Shown here piece by piece: positions 8,729 through 60,982 of a DNA stretch of 64,000 nucleotides; positions within the stretch are counted from its first letter, which is position 1, and each line of letters opens with the position of its first letter. The stretch lies in contig OZ024740.1 in the NCBI GenBank assembly GCA_964016885.1, positions 376,526,001 to 376,590,000 of the forward strand. The letters are read 5' to 3'. This DNA comes from Eledone cirrhosa. Lineage: Eukaryota. The notes under the pieces were generated by a model. That model did not search any database. It was not told the origin of the DNA and saw only the letters and a program-made list of their open reading frames with translations. Both the position numbers and the translations under genes were made by a program.

Positions 8729-8923
8729 TAGGAACTAGTAGGACCACGACGGCTGAGCTCAAGCCGTTTCGACGGCTAATTCTGAGTCCAGAATTAGCCG
8801 TCGAAAGGGCTTGAGCTCAGCCGTCGGGGTCCTACTCGTTCCTATTACCCACTCGACTACCCTAAGTATTGAGTACTTTTGTGCGTTATGGTCCATCTGG
8901 TTCCTTACCACATTTTCTTCGTT
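8729..8923 (+). mobile_element. Fold-back PLE 3'-end fragment with the 3' half of an HHR
   Basis: Arms 8729-8784 and 8789-8844; tagccgtc GAAA (c)ggc ttgagctca gccg TC ggggt; same sequence as the 3' end of the 23594-26704 PLE; TA on both sides. Confidence 0.85.
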
Positions 8924-9107
8924 ATATATATATATATATATATATATATATATATATATATATATATATATATATATATATATATATATATATAAATATA
9001 TATATATATATATATATATATATATATATATATATATATATATATATATAAATATATATATATATATATATATAAATATATATATATATATATATATATA
9101 CATACAA

Positions 9108-9410
9108 AAGGCACACATATATATATATATATGTACGTATGGGTTTACCGAAAATTTATTATAATGTTCGGTGTGTTTGTAAACAAACAGCCCGAATTAC
9201 GCCGTGCTCGGCAACCATTGTTGCCCTATTCTTCAACACTGAAAAAGGAACGATGTACGGAGTAATTCGAGCTGTTTGTTTACAAACAAACCGAACATTA
9301 TAATAAATGTTCGGTAAACCCATACGTACATATATATATGTGTGCCTGTATGTATATATATACATACTACTGTATGTTTGTATACATATATGTATGCACG
9401 TATACATACT
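9108..9410. repeat. Palindromic MITE-like or fold-back element
   Basis: Inverted arms ~9108-9207 and 9255-9347 (tacgtatgggtttaccgaa...ttcggtaaacccatacgta); a second half-copy with shared flank is at 47857-48030. Confidence 0.7.
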
Positions 9411-9874
9411 TATATATATATATATATATATATATATATATATATATATATATATATATATATATATATGTGTGTGTGTGTGTGTGTGTGTGTGTGTGTG
9501 TGTGTGTGTGTGTTTTGAAAAATTGACAATGAAAATAAAAAGAACAAGGCCAAGTTACTTCATAACTTTGTTTTATTTTGTTGTTTTTATTTTTATTGTT
9601 AATTTAATACCTAATATCTGACTCTGTTCTAAAGACCTAAATCATACATACATTTGCGTACGTATATAGCTATGCATTTATACATTTGTATATATAGATG
9701 CATTTTTACTTGTGTAAGGATGTGGACATGATTTATGTTTTTTTGGTAAGGAGAGAATTTTGTCTGCAGATTTTATTAACTTGGGAGATTAAATATCACA
9801 GCATTTTAACCTCATCAAACACCAACGCCGGCCTGTATATGCATGTATGTATGTATGTATGTATGTATGTATCA

Positions 9875-10478
9875 GGTCACCAGTTGGTGCTACTGGTAAC
9901 ATGTATCCCAGTACAACCTGTCTCATGATCGGGTCGTTGGCGACTAAACTGGCAACCCACCAAGGTTTCTTGGTGAGGAGGGTGACTTTGAACATCCTGC
10001 AGGAATAAAGACAAAACCTGTCAAAGGGCAAATGAGCTCTTAAGAGTCAATGGCCATCCAAAATCACCGGGAGAGATGACCCCTTAGCCTTTATCAAGGA
10101 AGAATTCTAGGAGAAGGAAAACTCTGATATAACACCTGCAACTCTGATGGTATCCAATGATGTTGACTTGTTCTTCTTTTCGGTAAATATCATCTTGGTT
10201 AAGAGAGTGGGACTGGTTTTGTGCAGTGCCTTTGCTCACTATAAAAGCTTCACGGCACAGGCATTGCTTTATATCTGGAGATCTCTCTGCACTTGTCGTC
10301 ACATGGTACGATGGGCCCAACACTATGTGTCAATAATTGTCACAAGTTTAGTGTTTATACCAGAGTTTTCAAGTCGCTGGCTGGACTAAAAAGTCACACT
10401 CGTTCAGCACATCGGTAGGGGTTCTCCTACATGGATATAAAGTAGTGGCCGTACTCGAAAACGAGTTGGCAGCCACCA
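9875..10478 (+). mobile_element. Interspersed repeat, possibly LINE 5'-UTR-derived and non-autonomous
   Basis: 10071-10463 is nearly identical to 43686-44078; contains an aaggaaaactctgatataacacc motif; bounded by (TATG)n. Confidence 0.6.
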
Positions 10479-11563
10479 TGTATGTATGTATGTACGTATG
10501 CATGTGTGTGTATGATTGTATGTATCATTGTATGTATGTATATATGTATACACCCTCAGCTTTCATACCATTGCTTCTTTTTCTTGTCGTTTCTGTTGTT
10601 CTTGTAACTGGTGTCATAGTTGTCGTTGTCCTTATTTTCATTTTCTTTGATTTCTTTAGTTTTTCTTTTATCTCCCTAGGGAATTGGTTGACAAGCCTCT
10701 TTCATTTATTTTCTTCGTTTTCTTCATTCAAACTGGCTGTCACACTGGCTGTCTCAGAGTCGTACAACAATGGCTTATAACACTTACCAAAGTAAAGAGC
10801 CTTCACTGCCCCCAAAGCTTTACACGCCGCCCTAACGCCCCCTTGCTCCAACCCCCCCACACACACATCCACACACACACACACCCCGCTGGGGGAGGGG
10901 GGGGGGTATATTCCCCCAGTTGGGAACATTTGGTCTAAGCCATTACATTATGTATCGATTTTGATAATCTCTCCATTATGTACAATATAGCGTTTTCTAT
11001 ATATTTCAAATTCGTCTGGGAAGGCATGACGACACTTATTAATGATATTTAGTCCTTTGTAAAAAAAATATATATATATATATATATATATATATGATGT
11101 GATAAATATGTCTATGTATGTATGTGCGTGTGTGCGTGTGCATGTGTGTGTCTGTGTGCATGTGTATGTTTATTTCTGTGTGTGTGGTGATCTTCCACAG
11201 TCAAGAAGAGATAAACAGCGTATGTAAATACACACCAACACACACAGATCACACACATACACGCACTCATACACACACACATACACACATCAGTTCTGCA
11301 TCTGTCTTGATATGAAAATCATATGCATCCTTTCTCTACCAAAACAGACACCGGACAGAGATTTCAGAAGTTCATTAACTACAGGGAATGATTCACATTG
11401 TTAAGGAAACTATTTGACTGAATCGTGCCAGTTGCTGAGAATATAGTAATGATTTGTAGTACCCACATTTATTCTATTGAAACGGAGCATAATTCCATTC
11501 TTCCAGTCCTTGGGAACTGCACCTTCACTTTAATCTACACTAAGTTCCTTGAAAATGTCATAC

Positions 11564-11785
11564 GTCAACCACCAAAGCGTACGAAATAAGCGCAGTTTCC
11601 ATTTTCATTAGCAGCCTACATAGAATGCTTATACGTTTTGCCGTTGTTACCTCATCTATTGGGGATGCAACGTCCAGGTAGCTGACAACAGAATTTTCTT
11701 CATTGGTACTAATTACTGTATCATTCACAACAAACCCACGGTTTAACAGTTCAGACAATTTGTTCCATTCAGTAACCCGCGACAT
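11564..11785 (-). pseudogene. Candidate 222-nt host exon (unknown product)
   Basis: Bounded by aacag| and |gtatga, open in phase 0 (MSRVTEWNKLSELLNRGFVVNDTVIST...ALVVD), unique non-repeat sequence; neighbouring segments look coding but contain stops. Confidence 0.3.
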
Positions 11786-58859: not shown

Positions 58860-59712
58860 TGTTGTTATACCATCAAACCTGCATATTCCCCAGTGTAAAT
58901 ATTGCCCTACTCGGTCATGCTTCATTATATATTACTGAAGAGCGCTAATACTTTGCAGCCTGAAACCATGTGGTCAAGGGTTTCACTATGCCCATTGTAG
59001 AATCGATAATCTGTATCAGTTCCATTTTCGATCACATTGACATTTTCCAATTTATAATATTGAAACTGTAGGTGACGACAGGGATTGCAAGCGCATTTAT
59101 GGCAAATAATCTATTTCTCGAGTTAATCTCCCTTTTCATGACAGAACGTACTCTCTGGTAGCATTCCTTTCTGAATCCCTTTTCCATGCTGGCGTGGCGT
59201 GATGAATACCTTGACATTCATTGATCTCCAGATATCCGTAGGCTTATTCTTGTTCTAATTCCCCAATTACTGAATTCACATCTATTTCTATTGAGTTTAT
59301 GCTTGTCATTCTACGTTTCTTGAATGTTGTATTGGCGCATTTTTCCAGTCCTTCTCCATCCCCACATAATCACTGAACACCTTGATTGTCTTCAGTAGTC
59401 CTTCCAGTTCGTTGTCAATTTTGGCACACATCTCAAGTCATCCATATAAAGCAAGTGAGGTATTATTTTGATGTCTATTTTTTTTGTTACCATATTTTGT
59501 TTTGTTAAGTGCTATTTCTTCTATGATTTGGGATAAGTAACCATTAGACCCCTTAGGTATCATTCCTAGAGTGTCTACAACCACCGAGATTATTTTAGCT
59601 CTCAACTTCCACATTTTTTCCATCTCTATCTTCAGGTCTTTATACTTGCTCAATTTTTCAAATGTTTTTACATTCTTGTCTATAGGAACGGACATGTCAA
59701 TTAACAGACATA
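58860..59712 (-). mobile_element. Scrambled fragments of related R4/Dong copies
   Basis: RLE piece 59520-59712, RT piece 59033-59510 and zinc-knuckle/RHD piece 58860-59030, in non-colinear order. Confidence 0.8.
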
Positions 59713-59727
59713 CAATTATTATTAGTA

Positions 59728-59824
59728 GTAACTTTGCCTTTCATCCTTATGGGGTCGATAAAATAAAGTACCAGTAATACACTGGATAATTGCTGGCCTT
59801 GTGCCAACAGGAGAAACAATTATT
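59728..59824 (+). mobile_element. SINE 3' half
   Basis: taactttgcctttcatccttatggggtcgataaaataaagtaccagt... Confidence 0.85.
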
Positions 59825-60676
59825 ATAATAATAATTATTATTATTGTTCAGTCTTTCAAGACGTGGTTTACATTGGTCGTGTAAGTTTGTTCTATTTACA
59901 CGACCGTTTAACATAGAGGTACGACAAAGAGCCGTACCTATATGCCACGAAGCGTATTGTCCGACGCTCTACCGATACTGCCAACTTTCTCTCTGGTACA
60001 CTTGGACAAATTGTAGGCAATTTGTAAACAAGAATATTAATGACAGTAAATAATGCAAAATATCACGTCTATATATATTGCAGTGGCTATTATCAGTATA
60101 ACTGAAATATAAGGGATTTACCACATAGTCTGTTTGCAGACTGCATGATATTGTGTGATTGTCTTATATAAAACAGTAGTATCTAAATTGCGATTTCTCG
60201 CGTTTCGTTATAATATTCAACATATAATATATCAAATTTTATTTAATTCCTCATTAAATGTTAAAACGTGTAAAATAACCATAATGATAATTCGTTTCAT
60301 TTTTTGAATAGTTATGGAATAATAAAAACTAATGCAATAACAACAACTTGTTTCACATTTTTACGAAATAAATTTAGAATTTAAGCGGTATTACACATAT
60401 TTAATTAAACAGTAATATAATAAAATAGATTCTAATAAATTGGTTATTAAAAACAAATCGCTATCGTAAAATAATATTTGCATAGTTTGGGAAATACATG
60501 TATGCTAAAGGTAGACGCGCTCTATCATCCACTTTTCTAAAAAATAAATCATACACAAAACACCAGCACCAACAGTTTTGCAAGAGATGTCAACATGAAT
60601 GGAGCTGTTATTTCTATCTAAAGACATTTTTTCCAATCCCGCCCCCCCCCCTCAAACTATCTTATTCCTCATTCTT

Positions 60677-60712
60677 TCTTCTGATGAAGGACTAGCGTCC
60701 GAAAAGTCAAGA
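60677..60712 (+). ncRNA. Minimal HHR, one substitution in stem III
   Basis: tctt CTGATGA a ggac tagc gtcc GAAA a g TC aaga. Confidence 0.75.
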
Positions 60713-60837
60713 CCCTCTTCCTGCTATATCAAGCGTTAACCAAATATATCCCTTCCATATACTGTACCGATCGTGTTGTTATTTCTGTTTACCTTTTACA
60801 CACACATACACACACACACACACACATATATATATAT

Positions 60838-60982
60838 ACTAGTCCAGAAATAGCCGTCGAAACGGCTTGAACTCTGCCGTCAGGGTCATACTTTTTCATA
60901 TTTCCCACTCTACTACCCTAAATATTGAGTACTCTGGTGCGTTATGGTCCATCTGGTTCCTTACCACAATTCCTTTGTTTTA
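60838..60982 (+). mobile_element. Diverged copy of the PLE 3'-end fragment family
   Basis: agtccagaaatagccgtcGAAAcggcttgaactctgccgTCagggtc...ttatggtccatctggttccttaccaca. Confidence 0.85.

Follow-up and report, generated by a model that had tools for sequence, protein, structure and literature searches.

Stubs of a Penelope-like retroelement in the TA repeats of Eledone cirrhosa share a 5' break that likely marks the end of its RNA

Introduction

The closest described relatives of the sequences treated here are the Hydra-clade Penelope-like elements (PLEs) with a C-terminal endonuclease (EN+), for example Hydra-1_Obim (PMC8557442; this and the other papers cited below are quoted from excerpts). 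These elements combine a single frame for reverse transcriptase (RT) and GIY-YIG endonuclease with a DKT motif, an RWK-like motif, a CxCx5C linker, a hammerhead ribozyme and a (TA)n target, and they are generally shorter than 3 kb. We analyzed 64,000 nucleotides of the 3.0-Gb genome of Eledone cirrhosa (contig OZ024740.1, positions 376,526,001 to 376,590,000 of the forward strand; the whole stretch is called the window), in which short pieces of a PLE without open reading frames (ORFs) lie in TA repeats. Their parent is alike in the features listed above but is 3.5 kb long and has a long loop II in its ribozyme, and the excerpt on the Hydra clade mentions no dominant 5' break within a ribozyme. 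We suggest, on sequence evidence, that the pieces are terminal stubs of this Penelope-like retroelement, and that the break they have in common likely marks the 5' end of its RNA, probably the transcription start.

Head-to-head arms, a one-sided tail and tandem arrays are known from PLE insertions elsewhere (PMC8557442, PMC3846280, PMC2377424), where the tail measures 30-40 bp and the upstream copy is called "variably" truncated, whereas here the tail is 80 nt long and about 85% of arms break within 11 bases. The PLE tail itself has been described (PMC8557442, PMC11167929). With Poseidon of the green anole in vitro, it arises because RT starts internally at two sites, which lie behind the ribozyme and towards the 5' end of the RNA, as proposed for our element; both DNA strands are cut and extended, and a 5'-shortened template gives a shorter product (Frangieh et al. 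2024, PMC11167929). Poseidon belongs to a different clade, and the excerpt leaves open the in vivo fate at the RNA 5' end. The hammerheads of PLEs, for which a circular template was proposed, resemble ours in the type I fold, the U3-A8 core, the palindromic loop III and the occurrence of motif pairs on opposite strands, and near-identical tandem units would fit such a template (Cervera and de la Pena 2014, PMC4209133). Animal non-LTR (long terminal repeat) retrozymes differ from the stubs (bioRxiv 10.64898/2026.07.22.740005, excerpt), which hold half a core and occur singly or head-to-head, not in tandem.

The new part is therefore the 5' break; the element class, the ribozyme, the tail and the inverted arms were already known, and the two fixed 3' ends with an inverted arm are the known PLE tail layout. 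Our literature searches, with subscription papers (e.g. Arkhipova 2006, Pyatkov 2004) excluded and other sources covered in part, returned no PLE 5' break hot spot inside a ribozyme and no strong-stop step; the supplement of PMC8557442 may list such ends, and a curator's remark on Hydra-1_Obim may touch on the point.

A common 5' break

Positions in the element are numbered from the first base of the common start (+1, window position 8785), with -1 as the preceding base in the parent. The copies of the main family in the window are as follows.

8729..8784, minus strand: inverted stub arm, +5 to +59/61, short 3' end running into (TA)n
8785..8924, plus strand: stub arm, +1 to +140, long 3' end with the 80-nt tail, head-to-head with 8729-8784
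20242..20302, minus strand: solo stub arm, +1 to +59/61, (TA)-rich flanks
23593..26705, minus strand: coding copy of the Penelope-like parent, 5'-truncated, short 3' end; 5' limit approximate
23609..23700, minus strand: complete type I hammerhead motif with the U3-A8 core variant, long stem/loop II and palindromic loop III; +1 is 23653, inside loop II, and the predicted cut follows +41
42275..42335, minus strand: inverted stub arm, +1 to +59/61
42335..42463, plus strand: stub arm, +11 to +140, paired head-to-head with 42275-42335
60841..60981, plus strand: solo stub arm, +1 to about +140, from a subfamily that is more diverged

The initial annotation had reported ORF-less copies with a common 5' start at four loci. 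These are real, and with both strands mapped they resolve into six short arms starting at +5, +1, +1, +1, +11 and +1. The earlier statement that the copies miss part of the ribozyme core was correct: the first half of the hammerhead core is absent from all six arms. A seventh arm, at 23593, runs on upstream past the break; its 3' end had been counted among the ORF-less copies, yet it belongs to the 5'-truncated coding copy with the whole ribozyme. The 3' ends lie at +59/+61 (8729, 20243, 23594 and 42277) or at about +140 (8924, 42463 and about 60981), and all merge into (TA)n. The two fixed 3' end positions proposed earlier were thus borne out, whereas the opposite strands and the head-to-head geometry had been missed: 8729-8924 and 42277-42463 are palindromes, each made of one short-ended and one long-ended arm. 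The predicted fold of 8729-8875 has -110 kcal/mol, and none of 200 shuffled sequences was equally stable. Segmental duplication, raised earlier as an alternative, was checked and ruled out: similarity between loci is confined to the element and the adjoining microsatellite, and the loci have no unique flanks in common, so the copies did not arise by duplication of one insertion.

Sampling of the genome shows how narrow the break is. Loci were chosen without regard to the 5' end, as 99 of the first 100 listed matches of a tail 23-mer (27,168 matches in all) and 40 evenly spaced 10-kb stretches; 192 arms were counted after removal of 17 split alignments and of arms less than 40 bases from a locus edge. 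The 5' ends of 114 arms lie in -4 to +7, two at -6/-5, none in -43 to -7, 13 beyond -43 and 63 downstream of +7. Among arms that reach +7, 114/129 therefore begin within 11 bases (121/137 among 217 arms before filtering). This bears out the view that the 5' ends converge beyond what random truncation would give, and the distribution of endpoints in this sample is far from flat. Exact 20-mers in the whole genome show the same cliff, with 36,540 matches for +7 to +26 and 5,692 for -7 to +13, the latter being somewhat low since this 20-mer misses at least one subfamily. Contigs assembled from reads (possibly from the same sample as the assembly) carry an approximately 15-fold step at +1, with loose ends before -4 to +1 and behind +61 and +141; an artefact of the genome assembly is unlikely, as the step is also seen in these contigs. 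Where arms continue past the cliff, their 5' ends are scattered between -7 and positions beyond -3,300 (40 loci from the list of the -7 to +13 20-mer).

The parent element and its two 3' ends

The parent unit in locus L258 is 3,531 bp long, with one frame of 717 amino acids (aa) for RT and GIY-YIG endonuclease starting near +234. Its protein has YRDD and a C-terminal YIG-type stretch by eye, and 2,049 homologues were found, mostly of about 700 aa. The coding copy in the window holds an open frame at 24881-26779 (minus strand), 92% identical to the L258 protein over 614 residues; a Pfam search of this truncated copy (23593-26705) detected no family. DKT is present, RWR stands where the Hydra clade has RWK, and a CxCx5C linker together with CxxC and CxH, placed next to the conserved E and N of the endonuclease, can be read by eye, while CCHH is absent. 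The hammerhead motif in the predicted fold of the unit junction and the (TA)n flanks agree with the Hydra clade, the units of 3,528-3,546 bp exceed the length typical of it (under 3 kb, which is not defining), and the protein resembles Hydra-1_Obim by eye. The parent is thus a Penelope-like element with Hydra-clade motifs, its clade placement being read from these motifs by eye. Assignment to Naiad was dropped because the endonuclease of the parent is C-terminal.

Exact matches of a 26-mer reaching from the long 3' end into non-repeat sequence number 304 in the genome, and several of them form tandem arrays. Since the tail runs on into body at these sites, it is the leader of the next unit: +1 to +140 has two roles, closing one unit and opening the one that follows. 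In the predicted fold, the ribozyme straddles the junction between units, with +1 within loop II. Units differ by 0-8 substitutions within arrays and by 5-55 between arrays (13 units). Loci L258-L261 and L263-L267 hold arrays of two to four full 3.5-kb units, nearly identical in each array and with an intact frame in at least one, which makes them candidate young active masters. At the 5' end of one array (L261:7170-9978) there are about 50 or more tandem copies of 55 bp from the middle of the frame, possibly caused by repeated RT slippage.

In the set of 217 arms, the 3' end is at +61 in 68 cases and at +140 to +144 in 107, the last bases merging with TA. Head-to-head pairs join a long-ended and a short-ended arm in 62/78 cases, a count ascertained through the tail. 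The 21 pairs met incidentally comprise 11 long+short, one short+short, five long+long and four other pairs, and all five long+long pairs lie in loci that had been selected for a junction of tail and body. In long insertions the 3' ends are asymmetric in the same way as in the stubs, and the layout, with a partial tandem, an inverted 5'-truncated arm and a one-sided tail, is that of EN+ PLE insertions. Arms of a pair share a subfamily, with 0.87 mean differences within pairs and 2.5 between pairs (46 pairs). They are often not nested (e.g. L170 with +1/+67, L214, L196), so neither arm was simply copied from the other.

The U3-A8 core is a described PLE variant (PMC4209133). The long-loop hammerhead was not reported among the 150 Rfam matches listed for the window; other matches were microsatellite-driven miRNA hits and two unrelated sub-threshold hammerheads. 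In one abundant subfamily (L034, L039, L041, L051, L060, L190, L244, L250) the core has C3 with A8, a mismatch, and the others have U3-A8; this subfamily spread although its ribozyme may be weak. Starts at +42/+43, just past the predicted cut, show a faint excess at most (3/192 and 4/243 arms, too few to call); those in L249, L251, L150, L105, L116, L173 and L283 are possible copies of cleaved RNA.

A transcript end as the probable cause of the break

The fate of the RT on reaching the cliff differs between a first and a second encounter. About 12-16% of arms cross it at the first pass. Where at least 1.5 kb of body lies behind the tail junction, 13/14 insertion events go upstream of +1 when they meet it again, an excess with a binomial probability of 4e-10 at a pass rate of 0.156. 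The 14 events come from the 17/30 loci of the 304-match set that qualified, one array being counted once. Where the upstream units are short (190-959 nt), 0/11 loci pass +1. Same-orientation joins to a non-adjacent position in the body occur at 11 loci among 381 short arms, two further rows having been discarded as indel artefacts, and 10/11 of these jumps leave from -4 to +4. This is the place of departure expected at template run-off on the precedent of R2, whose RT jumps between templates in dependence on non-templated addition (PMC8857657). The landing sites are mostly at +200 to +360, a biased range as many of the loci were picked for a tail-body junction. Several arms have runs of T or C in front of +1.

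A sister family, about 25% diverged and with a different loop II, is represented in the window by two features.

31488..31616, plus strand: sister-family 3' end with a whole hammerhead, a different loop II and an initiator-like motif at its +1 (31556)
3215..3343, minus strand: sister-family stub starting at its +2; limits approximate

By eye, 10/12 short arms of this family start at +1 to +7, and both of its long copies keep the initiator-like motif at +1. This motif resembles the initiator (Inr) consensus. A table in PMC6472829 labels a matching hexamer as Inr, and transcription of Penelope starts inside its pseudo-LTR from an internal promoter with an Inr (PMC2377424). No match to the consensus of a downstream promoter element was seen by eye at +28 to +32. 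Two subfamilies have a TATA-like word near -29, which is absent from the sister family; we do not use it as support. Two further candidates were rejected. A 3' splice site at +1/+2, after the pyrimidine run, is at odds with 56/121 cliff arms that start at or before +1 and with 15/121 more that start at +2, all of which keep bases that splicing would remove, and the upstream sequences are not shared. The idea that full-length copies also start at +1 was wrong: most such copies are short jump products.

These observations can be joined in a simple scheme. The enzyme of the element would nick both strands of a (TA)n target, and two complementary DNAs (cDNAs) would be primed inside the 5' leader of the RNA, at +59/61 and +140. 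If the RNA is linear (open), both cDNAs would hit its end after at most 140 bases and run off at -4 to +7; stuttering or the addition of a few bases would be followed by joining to each other or to the flank, leaving a stub (about 85% of arms). A minority would find a continuous template at this point and go on into the 3' end of the unit, giving long copies and tandem arrays. Such a continuous template could be a ribozyme-made circle, a read-through multimer or an RNA whose ends are held together. The run-off in the leader would resemble the strong-stop step of LTR retroelements, in which minus-strand strong-stop DNA is made; here synthesis would be target-primed at the insertion site with two primers, no tRNA primer and no integrase. 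The near-identity of units within arrays is in line with the circular template of PMC4209133.

A transcript boundary that splits the ribozyme, leaving it whole only where two units or the ends of a circle meet, had been one of the possibilities raised at the outset. Judged from sequence, it is the best fit and survives the tests that were run. More tentatively, the RNA of Hydra-clade elements may start inside their own ribozyme, so that its 5' end would be the half with the cut site and its 3' end the other half. Pairing of the ends would then rebuild the ribozyme and close a circle; only closed RNA would give long copies and new pseudo-LTRs, and open RNA would give stubs. We consider this extension, taken as a whole, possible yet doubtful.

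One array suggests what a departure from the cliff can lead to. In locus L262 (G000:C2:356027000-356034000), tandem 299-bp units join +1 to +262 to the final bases of the parent that carry the ribozyme; the array has seven full spacings, a whole hammerhead with a shortened loop II, and one joint exactly at +1. Tandem units that each carry a complete hammerhead, by which retrozymes are defined, were found only here. This retrozyme-like derivative apparently goes back to a jump at +1 and illustrates how a retrozyme could originate in this way.

Several observations weigh against a transcription start at +1. The base before +1 tracks the subfamily, being C in 7/9 C-type and 9/66 T-type arms (pair arms are not independent), which means that the template often reaches one to four bases further up. 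An extra G derived from a cap is not evident (8/66), and the end is ragged instead of being one capped base. About half of the 114 cliff starts lie at +2 to +7 and 63/192 starts are downstream of +7, which would require trimming or early stops. Chimeras between subfamilies across +1 were not evident by eye among 48 long arms, with one candidate (L005); transfer between different RNAs is therefore rare, and continuation would use the same or a continuous RNA. The contigs of one RNA run gave a single 140-base piece from the 3' untranslated region, with a share of 0.09, nothing at +1 and no sign of expression. In D. virilis the start of Penelope lies upstream of the ribozyme and not inside it (PMC2377424, PMC4209133). 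The free second crossing could reflect the state of the enzyme instead of that of the template. The unbiased sample, finally, represents the first 25 Mb of one contig and 40 spaced 10-kb stretches of two contigs.

Alternative explanations

A further point against initiation is that the cliff of the main family coincides with the 3' edge of the predicted apical loop, where cleavage by an RNase could explain it. In the predicted fold of the intact unit, the apical helix has its 3' arm at -4 to -1, and +1 is bulged. The RNA could thus end by an endonucleolytic cut in or beside the stem II apical loop, made by a host RNase or at labile pyrimidine-A steps, and a ragged end without a cap signal agrees with this. 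Such a cut would account equally well for run-off, jumps and the free second crossing. The sister family, however, has a different hairpin, with its tip about 8-16 bases before +1, yet its arms break at +1 to +7 and the initiator-like motif is kept. We regard a cut in place of initiation as unlikely, while giving it more credit than the explanations below.

Another possibility, also raised in the initial annotation as a strong RT stop at stem II, is that structure or a bound protein in loop II halts the RT on continuous RNA. The break does lie within structured ribozyme sequence, the base preceding +1 is copied from the template, and the position relative to the core is conserved between the two families. 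Against such a stop, 13/14 long events recross the very same sequence. The break is near the hairpin tip, at a point where the 3' strand of stem II has already been copied, and it recurs in the sister family despite the different loop II; the gap between -43 and -7 in the unbiased set is a further difficulty. We consider an intrinsic stop improbable.

The stubs might also be made mostly by a self-propagating 140-bp non-autonomous element transcribed from +1, to which we give a small chance as the main source. Junctions vary between copies, which argues against a clonal mini-element; an internal promoter could transcribe stubs, however, and junctions would be remade in each round, so that variation among junctions is not enough to discard it. 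Two minor sequence types were seen only as short arms (8 and 3 arms), their long copies being under-sampled. Against this, the three main types are found as both short and long arms (56/33, 34/25 and 16/37, with short arms counted in unbiased loci and long arms in all loci). The same junctions recur across different subfamilies and are therefore convergent. The predicted hairpins behind the two 3' ends also bear on the question:

8851..8875, plus strand: small predicted hairpin just behind the short 3' end; weak folds

The hairpins behind +59 and +140 are weak (z -0.8 to -2.0), and the one behind the long 3' end is found only in the parent. Stubs do not carry it, yet long+short pairs dominate, and short+short pairs are as rare as 1/21 among incidental pairs. 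Head-to-tail tandems of the 140-bp unit, which had been suggested as a sign of such an element, were not seen in the loci read. A structure fixed by descent apart from the parent, the mark of an independent family resembling miniature inverted-repeat transposable elements or short interspersed elements (SINEs), was not found among the main types.

The common point could also stem from fold-back self-priming, an idea put forward for Penelope of rotifers (PMC3846280), or from deletions that arose later at the centre of the palindrome. Pair arms of one subfamily and the instability of palindromes would agree with this. Yet the breakpoint is the same in solo arms and in same-orientation jumps, where there is no palindrome, and arms are often not nested. 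As a cause of the cliff this is very improbable and largely refuted, but it may still blur starts downstream of +1.

Other repeats in the window

The window contains further mobile sequences. An inverted pair (20868-21494 / 22501-23084), with a sub-threshold Rfam type I hammerhead in each arm (21141-21185, 22810-22854), is another ribozyme-bearing fold-back family. Other GIY-YIG/RT Penelope-like remnants lie at 5923-7893, 38596-40395 and 46043-47451, one of them with 340-bp inverted arms, and contain frames at 6729-7610, 38596-40395 and 47101-47451. Part of a non-LTR element, in which Pfam recognizes an RT domain (RVT_1), occupies 57185-58931 on the minus strand. A SINE-like dispersed repeat of 100-290 bp occurs in at least nine places, some as inverted pairs (2325-2494, 4155-4436, 13784-13973, 15270-15473, 30642-30813, 50645-51118, 52387-52671, 54228-54462 and 59729-59837).

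Implications

The stubs are ordinary debris, yet their statistics name a base position and predict open and closed classes of template. Tens of thousands of short palindromes in this genome are explained in this way without a new class of element. If closure through a split ribozyme is true, tens of thousands of stubs would record the failed closure step, and closure would be the missing mechanism by which pseudo-LTRs are regenerated. The cliff thus gives a testable idea of how such elements may rebuild their ends.

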